Positions 8,905 through 16,605 of a DNA stretch of 64,000 nucleotides are shown one piece after another. The translations under genes were made by a program, and so were the position numbers. The stretch is from Candidatus Omnitrophota bacterium. GTDB taxonomy: Bacteria; Omnitrophota; Gorgyraeia; Gygaellales; JBFMHM01. The DNA lies in assembly GCA_040753015.1 (NCBI GenBank), contig JBFMHM010000001.1:147157-211156 (forward strand), in the 5' to 3' direction. The notes under the pieces were generated by a model. The model saw nothing but the letters and a program-made list of their open reading frames with translations. It was not told the origin of the DNA and did not search any database. Each line of letters starts with the position of its first letter. The first letter of the stretch is position 1.

Positions 8905-9995
8905 ATTGTTTTATTTGATACCCCTGCGCTATCAAATGTTGCCATTTGTGTTAAAATTTTTAATGCCGCCTCAGCTAAATTTATACCTAAGGCTGCGCCT
9001 GTGCCCTCACCAAGCCGTAAATCTAAATTTAAAAGCGGTCTTAAGCCAATATGCTCTAATATAATTTTATGCCCTCTTTCAACAGAACAATGCGAAGCAA
9101 TCATATAATCTTTTACTTTCGGTTCTAATTTATAAGCAATTAATGCTGCCGAACCTGAGATAAAGCCGTCAATTAATACCGGCACTTTATGTAAGGCCGC
9201 TGCAAAGATAATCCCTACTAATCCACCAATTTCAAAACCACCAACCTTAGATAACACATCTATTGCATCATCTGGATTTGGTTTATTTATTTCAAGCGCT
9301 TTTTTAATAATTTCAATTTTATTTTTTAAACCTCTATCGTCAATACCTGTGCCGCGGCCTGTAATATCTTCGACGCTAGCACCAGTAAAACATGCGGTTA
9401 TAGCGCTTGCTGATGTAGTATTACCAATACCCATCTCACCTATGCCAATAATATCTATGCCGTTTTTTAACTCATCTTCAAATATCTCAATCCCACACTC
9501 AATAGATTTAATTGCTTCCTCTTTAGTCATTGCCGGGCCTATTGCCATATTCTTTGTGCCTAAATTTATTTTTTTTAATATAAATTTGGTCATTGGGATT
9601 TGGGATTTGCTTGGAATTTGGTCATTGGGATTTGGGATTTGTTCTGCCACTCCCATATCAACCACTACAACTCTCGCACCAATATGATTAGCTAGCACAT
9701 TAATTCCTGCCCCACCATTCAAAAAATTATAAACCATCTGCGCTGTAACTTCTTTTGGGTAAGCGCTAACCCCTTCTTCTGTAACGCCATGATCACCTGC
9801 TAAAGTAAAGATAACTTTATTTTTTAATTCCGGGTTTCCTTTCTCGGTTATTCCGACGATTTGTTTTGCCAAATCTTCTAAAACCCCTAAGCTGCCTAAC
9901 GGTTTAGTAAGATTATTTAGCTTGTTTTGAGCCTTATTGATAAAATTATAATCAATGCCTACAATGTTTTGAATTATTTCTTCGATTTTGCCCAT
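8901..9995 (-). CDS. cobT: nicotinate-nucleotide--dimethylbenzimidazole phosphoribosyltransferase
   Basis: 364 aa. Motifs LGSLGVLEDLA, AGDHGV and GEMGIGNTT. Contains a low-complexity insert encoded by a TGGGATTT-type tandem repeat. Confidence 0.85.
   Translation of the reverse strand: MGKIEEIIQNIVGIDYNFINKAQNKLNNLTKPLGSLGVLEDLAKQIVGITEKGNPELKNKVIFTLAGDHGVTEEGVSAYPKEVTAQMVYNFLNGGAGINVLANHIGARVVVVDMGVAEQIPNPNDQIPSKSQIPMTKFILKKINLGTKNMAIGPAMTKEEAIKSIECGIEIFEDELKNGIDIIGIGEMGIGNTTSASAITACFTGASVEDITGRGTGIDDRGLKNKIEIIKKALEINKPNPDDAIDVLSKVGGFEIGGLVGIIFAAALHKVPVLIDGFISGSAALIAYKLEPKVKDYMIASHCSVERGHKIILEHIGLRPLLNLDLRLGEGTGAALGINLAEAALKILTQMATFDSAGVSNKTI
9588..9641. repeat. tandem direct repeat of ggtcattgggatttgggatttg (2 copies plus degenerate TGGGATTT units) inside cobT
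   Basis: Direct reading: copies at 9588..9609 and 9620..9641. On the coding strand they encode QIPNPNDQIPSKSQIPMTK. Confidence 0.8.
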
Positions 9996-10007: not shown

Positions 10008-11348
10008 CTATTTTTTAACCGCGCCAAGATTATAATTATATTTAAAACTATTAGAAGATTCATCCCTAAGAAGATATTTAACTTTATCTTCGGCTATTAA
10101 TTTAAAGGCATAGCGAATAATTTCTTTATAAAAATCGCAAAATACTGCCTTCTGATGCATATTTCCAAATGAATGTAATTCTGCAGGGCAAGGTGCGCCA
10201 CAAATATTTCTAAAATTACAAATATCACATTCTTTAATTCTTTCTACAACTCTTGACCTAATCCGCTTAAATGGCTTAGACTCCATTGCCGTATTAACTG
10301 ATGTTTTAAAAATATTGCCTCCAGAAAAACCCTTAAGTCCGATAAATTCCCCACAGGGAATCATGTTGCCGCTTGCCGTAATCGTAAAAAAACACCTACC
10401 CCCGCCACAAGGAGAAATATCACACATTAATCTACGAGCAACTGGTGCAATTATTGCCAGTATCGTGTTAGAAAAATTACCAATAATAATTTTATGCTTT
10501 GAATTTATTGATAGATTAATCGCAGTATCAACTGCTTTTTTAAAATATTTGGCCATAATTTTATCTTGTGGTTTTAGAGCGCGCATAGATACTTTTGTAA
10601 ATCTAACTGGATTCATTAAAACACATGGCACTTTTTTTGTATGTAAAAATTTTACTATGCGCGGCAAATCCTCTACATTAAATTTTGTAACTGTTGTAAT
10701 AACGTTAAGCCCCTTATACCCATCAAACCATTCTATAGCCCTAACAGCATTAGCAAAATTGCCGCCTACTTGTACAGCTGGCCTTAATCGATTATTCCGA
10801 GAAAGAGAATATGAGTCTAAAGATATTCCCACGCCAACTTTATGCTTCTTTAAGAATTCAACATCCTTTTTCTCAAGCAAAATGGCATTAGTTTGAAGCC
10901 CAAATTTAAAAATCTTATTATATTTAATTATTGCATAAAATATTATTTCCTTAACCAGCAAAGGCTCGCTAGCGTGGAATATGATAACTTGTTTTCTTTT
11001 ATTATTTTGAAAATGTTTTGCAAGCTTATTAAGAATAAAATCGAGTTCTCCTCTAGTCATTGAGCGGCCGTTTTTTCTAATATGATGCGGAACATAACAA
11101 TAAGAACAATTTGCATTGCACTTATCAGTAGGATCTACATAGATAGCAGTCAAGCCTTGACTAAACCTAAAATCATTAATTTCCTTGCTTATCTTGTCTT
11201 TGATTTTCTCATAGAGAGTAAGCACATCTCTAGATATAAATAATCCCGCCTTATCTTTATTGTACGTAACTGCCCAAAAAATATTATCAGGATCTAGTAA
11301 AATGCTATTATGACTGTTGCTGTCAATACTTAAGCCCTGCTTATTCAT
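10008..11348 (-). CDS. radical SAM enzyme with C-terminal SPASM domain and N-terminal RRE-like region (peptide-modifying-type maturase)
   Basis: CxxxCxxC motif CNANCSYC after a ~75-aa N-terminal domain. C-terminal Cys cluster CDISPCGGGRC...PCGEF...CDICNFRNICGAPCP is typical of SPASM. Preferred start is ATG at 11348 (MNKQ), with GGAG 6 nt upstream. The ORF track extends it to 11384. Confidence 0.75.
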   Translation of the reverse strand: MNKQGLSIDSNSHNSILLDPDNIFWAVTYNKDKAGLFISRDVLTLYEKIKDKISKEINDFRFSQGLTAIYVDPTDKCNANCSYCYVPHHIRKNGRSMTRGELDFILNKLAKHFQNNKRKQVIIFHASEPLLVKEIIFYAIIKYNKIFKFGLQTNAILLEKKDVEFLKKHKVGVGISLDSYSLSRNNRLRPAVQVGGNFANAVRAIEWFDGYKGLNVITTVTKFNVEDLPRIVKFLHTKKVPCVLMNPVRFTKVSMRALKPQDKIMAKYFKKAVDTAINLSINSKHKIIIGNFSNTILAIIAPVARRLMCDISPCGGGRCFFTITASGNMIPCGEFIGLKGFSGGNIFKTSVNTAMESKPFKRIRSRVVERIKECDICNFRNICGAPCPAELHSFGNMHQKAVFCDFYKEIIRYAFKLIAEDKVKYLLRDESSNSFKYNYNLGAVKK

Positions 11349-11374
11349 TATATCTCCTGCCATATGCGGGCACG

Positions 11375-11398
11375 CCGGCGCCATACCTTTAGCGCCGG
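11375..11398 (-). other. GC-rich hairpin (7-bp stem CCGGCGC/GCGCCGG, 10-nt loop) between the small peptide gene and the radical SAM gene
   Basis: Inverted repeat read directly. No T-run follows it. It is the only GC-rich element in an AT-rich operon. Confidence 0.5.
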
Positions 11399-11415
11399 GT
11401 GTAATTTATTTAAAA

Positions 11416-11580
11416 TTATAATACTGTTTTTTCTTTCGGAACATCTCCATACATTACAAAATGAGATAACCCATTAGCTGTTTTAGCGCACTTTAAACGA
11501 TAAGACATGCTCTCTGCCTTACCTTTGCTTTTCATTGTGCTACTGTTTCTACTACAAGCTTTACTCTTTGACTTATTCAT
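11416..11580 (-). CDS. small basic 54-aa peptide, candidate substrate or precursor of the adjacent radical SAM/SPASM enzyme
   Basis: Absent from the ORF track because it is shorter than 60 aa. ATG at 11580 is preceded by a perfect AGGAGGTGA Shine-Dalgarno embedded in the last codons of cobU. Translation: MNKSKSKACSRNSSTMKSKGKAESMSYRLKCAKTANGLSHFVMYGDVPKEKTVL. TAA stop at 11416..11418. Confidence 0.55.
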   Translation of the reverse strand: MNKSKSKACSRNSSTMKSKGKAESMSYRLKCAKTANGLSHFVMYGDVPKEKTVL

Positions 11581-11582
11581 AA

Positions 11583-12113
11583 CTAATCACCTCCTAGCAT
11601 TTTTAAAGGTATTCCTGAAACCATAAAATATGCTTCACTTGCCTCTTTTGCAACAATTTGATTAACGCGTCCGGCAATATCGCGAAAATCTCGTGCTAGT
11701 TTATTTTGCGGAACAATTCCTAAACCAACCTCATTCGAAACAAACACACAATCGCTTCTATTTTTTCCAACAATTTTCAAAATACTTCTTACCTGATTTT
11801 CAATATCTTTTTCCCTAGTATTGGCTAAAAATAAATTGCATACAAACAACGTCAAGCAATCAACAATTATTAAATCAAGCTTGGGTGTTATTCTTTTAAA
11901 TAACGCGGATACATCTTTCGTTTCTTCAAAAGTTTGCCAATGGCTTGGGCGTGATTTTTTATGAATAGCAATACGCTTTTCCATTTCTTTATCCAAACCC
12001 TCAGCCGTTGCCACAAAAGCAACATTTTTATATTTTTTAGCAAGGCTTAAGGCATAAGTACTTTTTCCGCTTCTTGCTCCACCTAAAATAAAAGTGATTT
12101 TCCCCACAAGCAC
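11583..12113 (-). CDS. cobU: bifunctional adenosylcobinamide kinase / adenosylcobinamide-phosphate guanylyltransferase
   Basis: 176 aa with P-loop GGARSGKST. Size and cobalamin context fit CobU/CobP. Confidence 0.8.
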   Translation of the reverse strand: MLVGKITFILGGARSGKSTYALSLAKKYKNVAFVATAEGLDKEMEKRIAIHKKSRPSHWQTFEETKDVSALFKRITPKLDLIIVDCLTLFVCNLFLANTREKDIENQVRSILKIVGKNRSDCVFVSNEVGLGIVPQNKLARDFRDIAGRVNQIVAKEASEAYFMVSGIPLKMLGGD

Positions 12114-12126
12114 CTCAAAATAAAAT

Positions 12127-12762
12127 TTAGCGATATCCCGCCAAAGGCGGGATCAAATGTGAAACATCATTAAATAAATTTATTTTTATTTTTTTATTTT
12201 TATGTTCCACAATGCTTAAGCTTGCTGATTTTGGAATTGTATTCCAAAAATCGCGCGTTTTTAAAAGGTGGTTAAGAAATACACTAATTACACCACCATG
12301 CGTAACAATAGCAACAGTTTTTCCGCCCGAGGCGGATCCGCCTTTGGCGGAATTCATTATTTTTTTAATCGCCCTTATTACTCTTTTTTTAAGATCGCTT
12401 AAACTTTCTCCTTTGGGCACTGTTATCTTATAAGGGTTTTTAAGCCATCTCTTATAGATTACAGGATACTTCTGCAAAATCTCTTTATAGGTTAACCCTT
12501 CAAACACACCGAAATGTATTTCTCGTAAATCACTAATCTTTTCAATTTCCCTATTCTTGAATAATATTTTTGCAGTTTGGATAGCGCGCTTTCTGTCGCT
12601 TGCATAAATTTTATGAATTTTTTCTTTTTCTAATTTTTTTACTAATCCGCGAGCTTGCTGTTTACCAGTTTTATTCAACCCAACATCAGCAAAACCGCTA
12701 TAGCGCTTTTTAAGGTTATAATTTGTCTGCCCATGCCTAATTAACAATAATTTCACTGCCAT
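12127..12762 (-). CDS. cobC: histidine-phosphatase family protein, likely alpha-ribazole phosphatase
   Basis: RHGQT motif near the N-terminus. Assignment to CobC rests on the cobamide gene context. Confidence 0.65.
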   Translation of the reverse strand: MAVKLLLIRHGQTNYNLKKRYSGFADVGLNKTGKQQARGLVKKLEKEKIHKIYASDRKRAIQTAKILFKNREIEKISDLREIHFGVFEGLTYKEILQKYPVIYKRWLKNPYKITVPKGESLSDLKKRVIRAIKKIMNSAKGGSASGGKTVAIVTHGGVISVFLNHLLKTRDFWNTIPKSASLSIVEHKNKKIKINLFNDVSHLIPPLAGYR

Positions 12763-13550
12763 TATCTTTCTTTTCCAGATAAAAATACATATGGTTTTGC
12801 GCTAAAAGGATGCTTATTAACCACAACAACAGTCTTATATACCGCTTCAATATTTTGATAGGTTAACACTTCTTCGGCTGTGCCCTCTTTAAAAATTTTC
12901 CCTTCATTTAACAAAATTATGCGGTTGCAATAAAGACTGGCTAAATTCAAATCATGCAAAATTAAAACAATCGTAAGGTTGTTTTCTTTGTTTAACTTCT
13001 TTAGAAGATTTAGTATCTGTATTTGATGGCCAATATCTAAATGCGAAGTTGGTTCGTCTAAAAATAATAATTGCGGGCATTGTGCCAATGCCTTAGAAAT
13101 AAAAACTCTTTGCCTTTCCCCCGAGCTAAGTTCATCAATCATCTTGTGGCGCAACATCAACGAACCTGTTAACGAAAGCGAGTCTTGAGCTACCTCAATA
13201 TCATCTTTACTTTCAAATTCAAACCTCTTCATATGCGGGATACGGCCTAAAAGAACAAACTCTAAAACAGTAAAAGGAAAATTTAGTTCTGTGTTTTGCA
13301 GACAATATGCAGTTTTTTGGCAAAATTCTTTTAGTGCCATCTTAAAAATATTTTTTGAATCAAAATTTATCGTGCCTGTTTTGGGAATTAATACACGGCT
13401 AAGCAACCTAAACAACGTTGTTTTACCAGAGCCGTTTGGGCCAATAATGCCAAGAAAATCACCACTTCTTATCTTAAATGATATATCCTTAATAATTAAA
13501 CCTTTATCATAACCACCGCTTAAATTATTTACTTCTAATAAAACACTCAT
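12762..13550 (-). CDS. btuD: ABC transporter ATP-binding protein (cobalamin/iron-siderophore type)
   Basis: Walker A GPNGSGKTT, signature LSSGERQR and Walker B LLFLDEP. Confidence 0.8.
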   Translation of the reverse strand: MSVLLEVNNLSGGYDKGLIIKDISFKIRSGDFLGIIGPNGSGKTTLFRLLSRVLIPKTGTINFDSKNIFKMALKEFCQKTAYCLQNTELNFPFTVLEFVLLGRIPHMKRFEFESKDDIEVAQDSLSLTGSLMLRHKMIDELSSGERQRVFISKALAQCPQLLFLDEPTSHLDIGHQIQILNLLKKLNKENNLTIVLILHDLNLASLYCNRIILLNEGKIFKEGTAEEVLTYQNIEAVYKTVVVVNKHPFSAKPYVFLSGKER

Positions 13551-14515
13551 TATTTAACCAATTGCCTTCTTTTTAACAATAATATAAAAACCGGAGCGCC
13601 AAAAATTGCTGTAATCACTCCAATAGGAATTTCTAATGGTTGAAACGCGGTGCGTGAAACAACATCACAAATAACCATAAATATTGCTGCAGAAACCGCA
13701 CTTAAAGGAATCAACATTCTGTGATTTATTCCAATGGCTAAACGCACCATATGGGGAATCATTAACCCAACAAAACCAATTATCCCACAAATACAAACAA
13801 GGCTTGCGGTAATCAGAGAACAAACAACAATCAAAATCTTTTTTACTCTTTCTATATTTATTCCTAAATGAATTGCATCTTCCTCACCTAGAGAAATTGC
13901 ATTTAAATCTTGCCAAAATGCATAAACCACTCCACTTCCTATAAGCACAATAAAAGAAACGAGAATTACTAACTTAAAGTCATAAACACTAAAACTGCCC
14001 CATAGCCACCAAGTTAATTCGTGCAATGACTGATTTCCTGATATTGAAACCAAAAAAACAATAACTGCAGAAATTGCAACAGAAACAATTACCCCGGAAA
14101 GTATTAATGATTGTTCGTTAATTTTATTACCTTGCGTTGCAATTGCGCACACAAAAATAACCGTTAATATTGCCCCTATAAATGCAAATAAAGGCATATA
14201 TAGGCCAGATAATCCTAGCATTATTGCAATTATTGCCCCTAGCCCTGCGCCGCTTGATGTACCTAAAAGATATGGCTCGGCTAAAGGATTACGTAGAATC
14301 ACCTGCAAAACGATGCCAGAAACCGAAAGGCCAATCCCGCTAATTATTGCAACTATAACGCGCCAAATCCTCAAATTTAGAATTGCAGAATTTTGCGCAA
14401 AAAACAATTCTTTTACTCCAAGATTTACTGAACCTTTAAAGATTGCAATAAGAATACTGACTATCAGAATAGAAATTAATACCAAAATTAAATTTCTAAA
14501 ATATTTATTCGCCAT
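13550..14515 (-). CDS. btuC: FecCD/BtuC-family ABC permease
   Basis: 321 aa polytopic membrane protein of the FecCD type. Lies between the ATPase and the binding protein. Confidence 0.8.
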   Translation of the reverse strand: MANKYFRNLILVLISILIVSILIAIFKGSVNLGVKELFFAQNSAILNLRIWRVIVAIISGIGLSVSGIVLQVILRNPLAEPYLLGTSSGAGLGAIIAIMLGLSGLYMPLFAFIGAILTVIFVCAIATQGNKINEQSLILSGVIVSVAISAVIVFLVSISGNQSLHELTWWLWGSFSVYDFKLVILVSFIVLIGSGVVYAFWQDLNAISLGEEDAIHLGINIERVKKILIVVCSLITASLVCICGIIGFVGLMIPHMVRLAIGINHRMLIPLSAVSAAIFMVICDVVSRTAFQPLEIPIGVITAIFGAPVFILLLKRRQLVK

Positions 14516-15344
14516 ATAGCTTATTGTGTAACTTTTTTAAACCCTGCACTATGCGCGGCCCTGGGCGCAAAAGTACGTCGGGATTAATATCGTTATAAAT
14601 TTGACTATTTTTTACCGCATTGATCTTACCCCAGCCAATTCTTTTAGCTACAACCTCTTTATCACTTTTACTTGCCATATAAGCAAGAATAATGCAATCG
14701 GGATTTTGCGCAATCACCTGCTCGGAGCTATAAATGCTATATGGCCGCTTTGTATTTTTAGCAATATTTATTCCACCCGATAAGGTAATTAATTCATCTA
14801 CAAAAGAAGCTTCTCCGGCGGTAGTTAAAGGATCATGCCAAATTTCAATAAATACTTTTTTTCTCTTATCCAAAGGCAATAATCTAACTTTTTTGGCTAC
14901 ATCGTTTATATTATTTTCTATATCATCAATCAATTGCCTTGCAACTTGCCCTGTATTGGTAATTTCACCAATATCAGAAATTGTCCTAAGCAGCTCGCTA
15001 AAAGACTTTGGGTCTGCTACATAAACTTTAATATTAAGCCGTTTTAGCTCTTCTACAACTATAGACTGCTCTAACCCGGTGCAAAAAACATAATCTGGCT
15101 TTAAAAATATTATTTTTTCAATATTAGGCTGGCTAAAACTTCCAACCTTCTCTTTACCGCTAACTTCTTTTGGGTAATTGCAGAAACTGCTAACTCCAAC
15201 AATTTCTTTTTCAAGCCCTAAACTAAATAAAATTTCTGTTGTTGAAGGAGCCAAAGAAATATAGCGGCTACAAAATGCATCATTTGTAAAAATAGATGTA
15301 AATAAAATTATAAGTAATAGTTTCTTCATATTTATATCCGCCAT
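14505..15344 (-). CDS. btuF: periplasmic cobalamin-binding protein (ABC substrate-binding, BtuF-like)
   Basis: Signal peptide and class III periplasmic binding protein features (SLAPSTTEILFSLGLEKEIVGVS). First gene after the riboswitch. Confidence 0.75.
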   Translation of the reverse strand: MADINMKKLLLIILFTSIFTNDAFCSRYISLAPSTTEILFSLGLEKEIVGVSSFCNYPKEVSGKEKVGSFSQPNIEKIIFLKPDYVFCTGLEQSIVVEELKRLNIKVYVADPKSFSELLRTISDIGEITNTGQVARQLIDDIENNINDVAKKVRLLPLDKRKKVFIEIWHDPLTTAGEASFVDELITLSGGINIAKNTKRPYSIYSSEQVIAQNPDCIILAYMASKSDKEVVAKRIGWGKINAVKNSQIYNDINPDVLLRPGPRIVQGLKKLHNKLYGE

Positions 15345-15379: not shown

Positions 15380-15409
15380 AAATAAAAAACCCCGACGAAT
15401 TGGTCGGGG
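15380..15409 (-). terminator. intrinsic terminator / riboswitch expression-platform attenuator (CCCCGAC-loop-GTCGGGG followed by a T-run on the minus strand)
   Basis: Stem 15390..15396 with 15403..15409 and loop gaattg. The minus strand then reads TTTTTTATTTATT. Confidence 0.65.
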
Positions 15410-15600
15410 TTGCGCCCTTTTTAGCTTCTTGGCCCTTTCCACGAGGTAAAACTTATAGATTAAAAGGTATTCTGACTTATGGCCTAAACCTAATTACTTT
15501 TGCCTTCCCGACTCAAAACTTCAGAGCAGTGGCTTTATTAAGCTTTCGTAGCCAATTACAGCAGCGGGACTGTGGCTGAATTTCACAGCCTTCCCCTTAA
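15410..15600 (-). promoter_or_regulatory. cobalamin (B12) riboswitch 5' of the btuF-cobS operon
   Basis: Minus strand carries AAGGGGAAGGCTGTGAAATTCAGCC...CCCGCTGCTGTAA and a B12 box AAAGCCACTGCTCTGAAG (15519..15533). It is followed by the terminator hairpin. Confidence 0.7.
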
Positions 15601-15640
15601 ACCTATATTACAAATTTTACTTATTATAATACAGCTTCTA

Positions 15641-16144
15641 TTAAAACTCAATACCTTTTCTTGCCTTAATACCTTTTTTATAGTAGTGTTTTATTTCTTT
15701 AATCTCGCTAACTAAATCTGCCAATCTAATGAGCTCCTTAGGTGCATTCCTACCGGTAAGAATAATTTCCTTATTCTTGGAAGCGCTCTTAATGCTATTT
15801 AAAAAATCTGCAAGATTTATCATCTTTAAATCTAGGACAATATTTGCTTCATCAAGAATAATTACATCATAAAATTTTTCTGATATAATTTTTTTAATTT
15901 TAGCAAAACCTTTACTGACTAACTTCATCTCTTTTTCTGAGGGTGTTTGCCTTATAAAACAACCAAGCCCAAATTGCTCAATTTCTATATTCTTTAGTGT
16001 TTTAATGGTTTTTATCTCGCAAAAAGAGCCATTCTTAATAAACTGGGCAACATAAACTCTTAGACCTGCGCCCAGCGCTCTTAAAGCAAGTCCAAAAGCT
16101 GCGGTAGTTTTTCCCTTACCTTCTCCTGTATAGACCTGAATCAT
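15641..16144 (-). CDS. cobA: cob(I)yrinic acid a,c-diamide adenosyltransferase
   Basis: N-terminus YTGEGKGKTTAAFGLALRALG is characteristic of CobA/BtuR. 167 aa. Confidence 0.8.
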   Translation of the reverse strand: MIQVYTGEGKGKTTAAFGLALRALGAGLRVYVAQFIKNGSFCEIKTIKTLKNIEIEQFGLGCFIRQTPSEKEMKLVSKGFAKIKKIISEKFYDVIILDEANIVLDLKMINLADFLNSIKSASKNKEIILTGRNAPKELIRLADLVSEIKEIKHYYKKGIKARKGIEF

Positions 16145-16605
16145 TTCGCTAGATGGTTATATGTTAAAATGCCAAAATAAGTTAACAAACTAACTATAGT
16201 TGCTGCAATAATAACACCAAGGACAATTGCCCAAAAGGCATAGCGAAACCTAATTTTAAATAAGCTTGCAATTATTGCCCCAGTCCAAGCACCTGTCATC
16301 GGAAGAGGCACAGCAACAAATAACGCAAGGCCAATTGCTTCATACTTTTCAATTAATTCTGCTTTATCTTTTGCGCGCTTAAACAACCAATCAAAGAACT
16401 TTTTTAAAATAGGAATTTTTCGTAATTTTTCTGAAACAGGCCTCAAGAATAAAAGCAGCGGAATAATCGGGATCATATTACCTAAAATAGACAATAATGT
16501 TGTTTTAATTAATGGCACCCCTTTTATTACACCCAAGGGGATTGCTCCTCTTAGCTCTGAAACAGGCAAACTTGCAGTTAAAATTACTAATAGTTCATTA
16601 CTCAT
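16141..16605 (-). CDS. small polytopic membrane protein (COG2426-like, putative small multidrug-export family)
   Basis: 154 aa, four TM segments, motif ELRGAIPLG. Confidence 0.4.
   Translation of the reverse strand: MSNELLVILTASLPVSELRGAIPLGVIKGVPLIKTTLLSILGNMIPIIPLLLFLRPVSEKLRKIPILKKFFDWLFKRAKDKAELIEKYEAIGLALFVAVPLPMTGAWTGAIIASLFKIRFRYAFWAIVLGVIIAATIVSLLTYFGILTYNHLAK

Follow-up and report, generated by a model that had tools for sequence, protein, structure and literature searches.

In two described cofactor systems, those of pyrroloquinoline quinone (PQQ) and mycofactocin, PqqA/PqqE (with PqqD) and MftA/MftC (with MftB) combine a small conserved peptide with a radical S-adenosylmethionine (SAM)/SPASM enzyme in a metabolic context, and the core is conserved across taxa. 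A third system of this kind, CbpA/CbpB, is curated in NCBIfam as the 'modified peptide precursor CbpA' (TIGR04164, cobo_pep) and the 'peptide-modifying radical SAM enzyme CbpB' (TIGR04163, rSAM_cobopep). The model name 'cobopep' implies that the system is located in cobalamin biosynthesis or transport operons. Here, we analyze a gene pair from a 64,000-nucleotide stretch of a Candidatus Omnitrophota genome (contig JBFMHM010000001.1, positions 147,157 to 211,156; hereafter, the window). The pair, which consists of a 54-residue peptide gene and a 446-residue radical SAM/SPASM enzyme gene, lies between cobU and cobT and is almost certainly a CbpA/CbpB system, given that the enzyme exceeds the equivalog cutoff, a short peptide gene directly precedes it and both genes reside in a cobalamin operon. 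We favor the reading that the peptide yields a factor that is kept in the cell and serves the metabolism of cobamides, and we consider this reading fairly probable.

The enzyme identifies the family. CbpB scores 488.7 bits against TIGR04163 (cutoff 375; E = 1.3e-146) in an alignment that spans positions 5-426 of the 428 profile positions, and an identical protein from a Candidatus Omnitrophota metagenome-assembled genome is already named CbpB in NCBI. The next best NCBIfam families, PapB (118.8 bits), DynA (107 bits) and the anaerobic sulfatase-maturating enzyme (anSME; 100 bits), fall far under their own cutoffs; PapB (NF047865) is the best-scoring characterized family, yet its cutoff is 340. 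The novelty that an earlier note on this DNA implied for the pair does not hold, because both genes belong to catalogued families. CbpA/CbpB is an already curated, apparently uncharacterized family and not a newly discovered system. The new elements are a divergent and unannotated CbpA branch, the extent of the association with vitamin B12 genes, a conserved stem-loop between the two genes and an N-terminal CbpB domain that is not recognizable as a RiPP recognition element (RRE), where RiPP stands for ribosomally synthesized and post-translationally modified peptide.

The peptide is related to CbpA more distantly. Its sole NCBIfam match is TIGR04164 (12.7 bits; E = 0.065), to which it is homologous over profile positions 3-19. 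The same model is the top, though weak, match for 44 of 46 peptide relatives (best E = 3.7e-4), and variants with an acidic leader reach 22-29.5 bits and thereby bridge to canonical CbpA. When an acidic-leader variant was used to search for named canonical CbpA, only eight unnamed proteins were returned. The window peptide is unlike canonical CbpA in its Lys-rich leader and in a C-terminal tail that extends beyond the 25-position model. Judged by its sequence, it is a divergent, unannotated branch of CbpA.

Is the small open reading frame (ORF) a gene? Its 54-residue product, MNKSKSKACSRNSSTMKSKGKAESMSYRLKCAKTANGLSHFVMYGDVPKEKTVL, contains 10 Lys and 9 Ser residues, in agreement with the Lys/Ser-rich peptide described in the earlier note. 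Its strong Shine-Dalgarno sequence, AGGAGGTGA (11595..11587, minus strand), is indeed buried in the cobU stop region, where it overlaps the last cobU codons (GGA GGT GAT TAG), with 6 nt between its end and the peptide ATG. The peptide consists of a variable, Lys/Ser-rich N-terminal part and a conserved core, SYRLKCAKTANGLSHFVMYGDVPKEKTVL. When one genome per species was scanned, at least 573 genomes encoded a relative of the enzyme, and 80 loci were fetched for comparison, mainly from Omnitrophota, Nitrospirota/Thermodesulfovibrionia and bins labeled Planctomycetia, with single loci labeled Bacillota, Hydrogenedentota, Firestonebacteria, Deltaproteobacteria, Nitrospinota and Deferribacteres. 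In 75 of the 80 loci, the radical SAM gene is directly preceded on the same strand by a small ORF homologous to the peptide gene, and in four of the remaining five the available upstream sequence is shorter than 350 nt. The synteny in relatives on which the earlier note staked its proposal is therefore present. Across 71 distinct DNA sequences of the core, the ratio of nonsynonymous to synonymous substitution rates (dN/dS) is ~0.04 with saturated synonymous sites, and every synonymous codon is in use at the invariant Gly and Leu positions. From these sequence patterns, we conclude that the small ORF is a genuine gene on which strong purifying selection acts.

Conservation is concentrated in the C-terminal core, where ~22 consecutive residues are retained. 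Among 196 peptides, N36, G37, L38 and H40 are invariant, C31 is kept in 194 and the M43-Y44-G45-D46 segment in 191; Tyr27 and Tyr44 are conserved as well. The N-terminal half varies in both sequence and charge, being Lys-rich here and acidic in other clades. A collection of 5.8 billion proteins contains 414 homologues of the peptide (E as low as 3e-15). When 1.84 billion cluster representatives were searched with a profile, only 21 peptide clusters at 50% identity were recovered, which share the motif Y-R-x-x-C-x(4-6)-G-L-[S/T]-H-[Y/F]. Homologues are mostly 48-56 residues long, a clustering that supports the first ATG as the peptide start. No protein identical to the window peptide exists in the protein collection searched, and its named relatives are called 'hypothetical protein'. 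A short CbpA variant (L074, L075, L077, L078 and L080) ends in NGLSHYVPAEKKALV and is devoid of the near-invariant MYGD segment; an acidic residue 5-6 positions past His40 is kept even there. In L075, the short variant has a Gly residue in place of the conserved Cys. A 102-residue protein (P0251) joins the CbpA core to an N-terminal segment with a 2Fe-2S ferredoxin-like Cys motif and may be a fusion or a gene-calling artifact.

The pair is closely associated with B12 genes. Of the 80 loci, 76 have cob, cbi or btu genes no more than 6 kb away, all co-directional with the pair, in three operon contexts. The pair is located between cobU and cobT, as in the window, after cobS or cbiB, or beside btuFCD and btuB. 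In ~30 Thermodesulfovibrionia loci, it directly follows the cobalt transporter genes cbiMNQO in a de novo cbi operon (Pfam annotation of L044). Cobalamin riboswitches occur in six of the 11 loci of one scan and in four of the 11 loci of another. In L011, an adenosylcobalamin (AdoCbl) riboswitch (RF01482) at 1538-1911 ends 74 nt before cbpA, which is therefore the first gene that it directly controls; a second AdoCbl aptamer is found at 218-354 of this locus. Thus, cbpA and cbpB move as a unit yet remain within B12 operons. Because the pair occurs in a salvage-only operon here and beside cobalt import genes elsewhere, a role confined to cobalt insertion or to the supply of the lower ligand seems less likely.

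CbpB has the features of a radical SAM/SPASM enzyme. The CNANCSYC sequence reported in the earlier note is present and supplies the radical SAM CxxxCxxC motif (C77, C81 and C84), and Pfam recognizes the Radical_SAM domain with 68 bits and the SPASM domain with 26.4 bits (cutoff 21.5). Beyond the SAM motif, nine Cys residues (C309, C314, C319, C332, C374, C377, C383, C387 and C404) are invariant in 57 homologues. The SPASM pattern reads C319-x7-G-x4-C332, C374-x2-C-x5-C-x3-C387 and C404, and the nine extra Cys residues would suffice for two auxiliary clusters. The AlphaFold (AF2) model of CbpB (mean predicted local distance difference test score 86.2; predicted template modeling (TM) score 0.89) matches the thioether-forming sactisynthase CteB (5WHY/5WGG) best in the PDB (E = 2e-20; TM 0.70), with which it shares the radical SAM and SPASM fold with two auxiliary clusters. 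Further fold matches are anSME, TigE, ChlB, SkfB and SuiB. As for the translation start, ATG 11348, preceded by GGAGA, agrees better with the homologue alignment than ATG 11384, at which the NCBI record starts a 458-residue CbpB within the cbpA-cbpB stem-loop.

The N-terminal region of CbpB departs from known maturases. The earlier note saw there an extension with a PqqD/RRE-like fold. A conserved extension of ~70 residues does exist; the proposed fold does not find support, with nothing above noise in Pfam and no relevant match among PDB sequences. An RRE is a winged helix of three strands and three helices that is recognized by a PqqD profile or by its fold, and neither reveals one in CbpB. 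In the model, residues 1-63 fold into three strands and a single long helix, and D19, F24 and W25 are invariant there, whereas CteB has a winged-helix RRE. In contrast to the PQQ and mycofactocin systems, no RRE of the PqqD or MftB type was found fused to CbpB or nearby in the Pfam-listed loci. The CbpB N-terminal domain may nevertheless bind the peptide, though it has no recognizable PqqD-like element.

The fold of CbpB also resembles that of anSME (PDB 4K36-4K39; E = 8e-18; TM to target 0.80), and the CbpB Cys residues are enough to ligate both auxiliary clusters fully, as in anSME. If the small ORF were spurious, the enzyme could be an anaerobic sulfatase-type protein maturase or a stray radical SAM gene, and the peptide gene was apparently uncalled in the source genome, as no identical database entry exists. 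This explanation can be practically dismissed. The conservation of the peptide in 75 of the 80 loci and its codon-level selection refute it, the anSME family TIGR03942 gives 100 bits, far under its cutoff of 349.45, and CbpB is not a member of that family. Moreover, no sulfatase accompanies CbpB, which has a dedicated small peptide instead; this peptide reads C-A-K-T-A and does not contain the sulfatase motif C/S-x-P/A-x-R.

The lower-ligand enzymes of the Bza pathway, BzaF and BzaAB, resemble the pair in that radical SAM chemistry is encoded in cobamide operons near cobT. To our knowledge, these ThiC-like enzymes come from another branch of the superfamily and possess neither a SPASM domain nor a peptide partner. 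No Bza enzyme is among the best 25 of the 63 NCBIfam matches of CbpB.

We propose the following mechanism. CbpB would bind CbpA at its conserved C-terminal core and generate the 5'-deoxyadenosyl radical from SAM with the CxxxCxxC cluster, and the two auxiliary clusters would help install one modification within the Y-R-x-x-C-x(4-6)-G-L-[S/T]-H-[Y/F] motif. That CbpA is the substrate of CbpB is probable. As for the product, an intramolecular cross-link from the near-invariant Cys31 would be the most plausible, because the closest characterized relatives (PapB, CteB and QhpD) make Cys thioethers and because an acidic residue is retained. CbpA resembles sactipeptides and ranthipeptides in its near-invariant Cys and the conserved acidic residue downstream; it is unlike them in having a single Cys, no repeated Cys motifs and a primary-metabolism context. 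A Cys-based cross-link in CbpA is a tentative assignment that we consider somewhat unlikely in itself. The modified peptide would then stay in the cell and serve cobamide assembly or corrinoid handling rather than act as an antibiotic. An intracellular product in the service of cobamides is probable because we saw neither an exporter nor a dedicated protease in the neighborhood examined and because the core is nearly invariant across phyla. This invariance, together with the constant proximity of the pair to B12 genes, is also why we assign the product a role inside cobamide metabolism, a point on which we regard the evidence as evenly poised.

The order of precursor, stem-loop and radical SAM/SPASM maturase is RiPP-like, as the earlier note recognized, and TIGR04163 is curated as peptide-modifying. 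The nearest structures and families of CbpB are RiPP maturases (CteB, SuiB, PapB and DynA). Such a locus could produce a secreted RiPP natural product, an antibiotic or a signal, that is merely gated by B12 without a cobamide role of its own. However, antimicrobial RiPP cores usually vary, whereas the CbpA core is near-invariant over several phyla, with the low dN/dS and the mere 21 clusters described above. In the examined loci, we saw no peptidase-domain transporter, no protease and no immunity gene, and the pair keeps within B12 operons while operon type and position change. We therefore consider a B12-gated natural product unlikely. Between the two possibilities that the earlier note offered, the evidence favors a peptide product linked to cobamides over a B12-gated natural product, and neither is proven.

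Alternatively, CbpB could act on a corrinoid or another tetrapyrrole, or attach a corrinoid to the peptide, and CbpA would then serve as a scaffold, a carrier or a donor of a His axial ligand. His40 is invariant in the 196 peptides, the pair is strictly found in cobamide operons, including salvage-only operons such as that of the window, and AhbD, AhbC, NirJ1 and NirJ2 are among the NCBIfam matches of CbpB (49-60 bits). Peptide maturases score approximately twice as high (PapB and DynA), the top fold matches are peptide- or protein-modifying enzymes, and the peptide does not contain the canonical B12-binding motif DxHxxG. This alternative is thus improbable, slightly more so than a B12-gated natural product.

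A still less probable alternative is that the peptide is consumed to yield a small molecule for cobamide assembly, for example a lower-ligand base or a phenolic compound from a conserved Tyr, in analogy to PqqA/PQQ and MftA/mycofactocin. The lower-ligand activation gene cobT immediately follows cbpB in the window and in nine other loci, Tyr27 and Tyr44 are conserved, and we noticed neither a bza nor a bluB gene in the Pfam listings of the window operon. In ~30 loci, however, the pair follows cbiMNQO, far from cobT, and the short peptide variant is devoid of the MYGD segment. The stretch of ~22 consecutive conserved residues seems longer than small-molecule excision needs, and for an excised two-residue cofactor a far shorter conserved core would be enough. 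Unlike the PQQ and mycofactocin loci, cbpA/cbpB has no conserved downstream peptidase, tailoring or other processing enzymes nearby; the follow-on enzymes PqqB/C/D/F and MftB/D/E/F were not seen in the Pfam listings.

Several points weigh against a cobamide-serving product of CbpA. The peptide scores far under the TIGR04164 cutoff of 35. Cys31 is substituted in two of the 196 peptides, and L008 has no peptide gene although 3 kb of upstream sequence is present, which is the sole clear absence among the 80 loci. No RRE was detected in CbpB, and SPASM tetrapyrrole enzymes (AhbD and NirJ) are among its weaker matches. The failure to see an exporter or a protease covers only ±6-10 kb and comes from limited homology queries and Pfam listings, not from a systematic survey. 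No experiment or paper on CbpA/CbpB was found in full-text literature searches, and we infer the modification, its site and the role of its product.

What does the stem-loop between cbpA and cbpB contribute? The GC-rich hairpin mentioned in the earlier note is 71% GC, compared with 35% for the window, and the 86-nt fold around it has a z-score of -2.35. An equivalent stem-loop with a z-score below -2 relative to shuffled sequence (median -5.2) occurs in 87% of the 62 related loci with a spacer of 25-260 nt, often with 12-25 pairs and mostly starting within 40 nt of the peptide stop. An intrinsic terminator was considered and rejected, since the window stem-loop has no U-tract and a U-rich tail follows in just five of 66 loci. 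An element of the repetitive extragenic palindromic (REP) type was likewise rejected, because the stem-loop is present in a single copy in the window. The stem-loop may instead stabilize or decouple the cbpA mRNA, so that more peptide than enzyme would be made; other precursor-peptide genes point to the same arrangement.

The features of the operon are collected in Table 1. The genes of the cbpA/cbpB region form one co-directional array on the minus strand, which is a corrinoid uptake and nucleotide-loop (salvage) operon; no corrin-ring genes are among the scanned operon and flanking genes of the window. A full-length cobalamin riboswitch aptamer stands at its head, in line with the riboswitch control claimed in the earlier note, and the terminator-like hairpin behind the aptamer is probably its expression platform. 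Since the riboswitch heads the operon, cbpA and cbpB are expected to be expressed when B12 is scarce.

Table 1. Features of the cobamide operon that contains cbpA and cbpB, in the order of transcription (ABC, ATP-binding cassette)
Feature	Coordinates	Strand	Basis
Cobalamin riboswitch aptamer, operon head	15636..15445	minus	Rfam RF00174, 76.3 bits (gathering score 31.5), full-length match
Terminator-like hairpin with U-run behind aptamer	15411..15388	minus	9-bp stem, 6 GC pairs, then TTTTATTTAT
btuF-like gene, corrinoid ABC importer	15344..14505	minus	ORF list; importer genes of syntenic L082: Peripla_BP_2, FecCD, ABC_tran
btuC-like gene, corrinoid ABC importer	14515..13550	minus	ORF list; L082 synteny
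btuD-like gene, corrinoid ABC importer	13550..12762	minus	ORF list; L082 synteny
CobC-like phosphatase	12762..12127	minus	Pfam His_Phos_1, 183 bits
cobU, adenosylcobinamide kinase/guanylyltransferase	12113..11583	minus	Pfam CobU, 197.9 bits; NCBIfam NF004469, 193 bits
cbpA-like peptide gene, 54 aa	11580..11416	minus	Conserved upstream of radical SAM gene; weak TIGR04164 match
GC-rich stem-loop	11401..11371	minus	RNA fold; 9-12 bp stem; starts 15 nt past peptide stop
cbpB, radical SAM/SPASM gene, 446 aa	11348..10008	minus	TIGR04163, 488.7 bits
cobT, lower-ligand phosphoribosyltransferase	9995..8901	minus	Pfam DBI_PRT, 458.7 bits; TIGR03160, 449.5 bits
cobS, cobamide synthase	8904..8155	minus	Pfam CobS, 170.7 bits
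Dph6-like ATP pyrophosphatase	8177..7473	minus	Pfam PF01902, 193.4 bits; under NCBIfam cutoffs
btuB-like TonB-dependent receptor	7345..5429	minus	ORF list; syntenic Plug/TonB_dep_Rec gene in L082
exbB	5414..4806	minus	Pfam MotA_ExbB
exbD	4794..4390	minus	Pfam ExbD
tonB	4421..3768	minus	Pfam TonB_C

Some neighbors recur without being universal. A gene for a Dph6-like ATP pyrophosphatase (PF01902) lies near the pair in 15 of the 80 loci (e.g., L081 9065-9739 and L082 13193-13867), and its product is below all NCBIfam cutoffs. An Asn-synthase-like gene with the synthetase domain only is found beside the pair in four loci, as is, also in four, a second small radical SAM gene (239 residues, activase-like); these loci come from a small number of Nitrospirota and Omnitrophota. 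Given these counts and the absence of a specific NCBIfam name, none of the three was accepted as a core partner. Both the Asn-synthase-like and the second small radical SAM genes are present in L081 (8101-9063 and 11352-12071) and in L056. In the Nitrospirota B12 operon of L081, cobU and cobT are separated by an inserted gene (15785-16339) like that of a REP-associated tyrosine transposase. The window operon closes with a 401-residue ORF (2506-3711, minus strand) right behind tonB, for which neither Pfam nor NCBIfam gave a match. The corrinoid adenosyltransferase gene cobO (15641-16605 region, minus strand) is located immediately upstream of the riboswitch, outside the unit that the riboswitch controls, and overlaps with the gene of a putative small multidrug export protein (PF06695).

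Cobamide biosynthesis and salvage belong to the best-mapped cofactor pathways, yet a peptide and radical SAM pair resides in the genomes of at least 573 species and is kept across salvage, transport and de novo operon types. Current annotation misses the peptide gene or leaves it unnamed, and the CbpA model could be broadened with the sequences that we collected. Modified CbpA may be an unrecognized component of cobamide assembly or corrinoid handling, as a carrier, a ligand donor via its invariant His or a cofactor, that is needed when B12 is scarce; we put this forward as a possibility that we hold with more doubt than conviction. If it is true, the pair would supply a missing B12 component in anaerobes such as Omnitrophota and Thermodesulfovibrionia, add a further peptide-derived metabolic factor beside PQQ and mycofactocin, and bring a ribosomal peptide into a cobamide pathway that is thought to be fully enzymatic.

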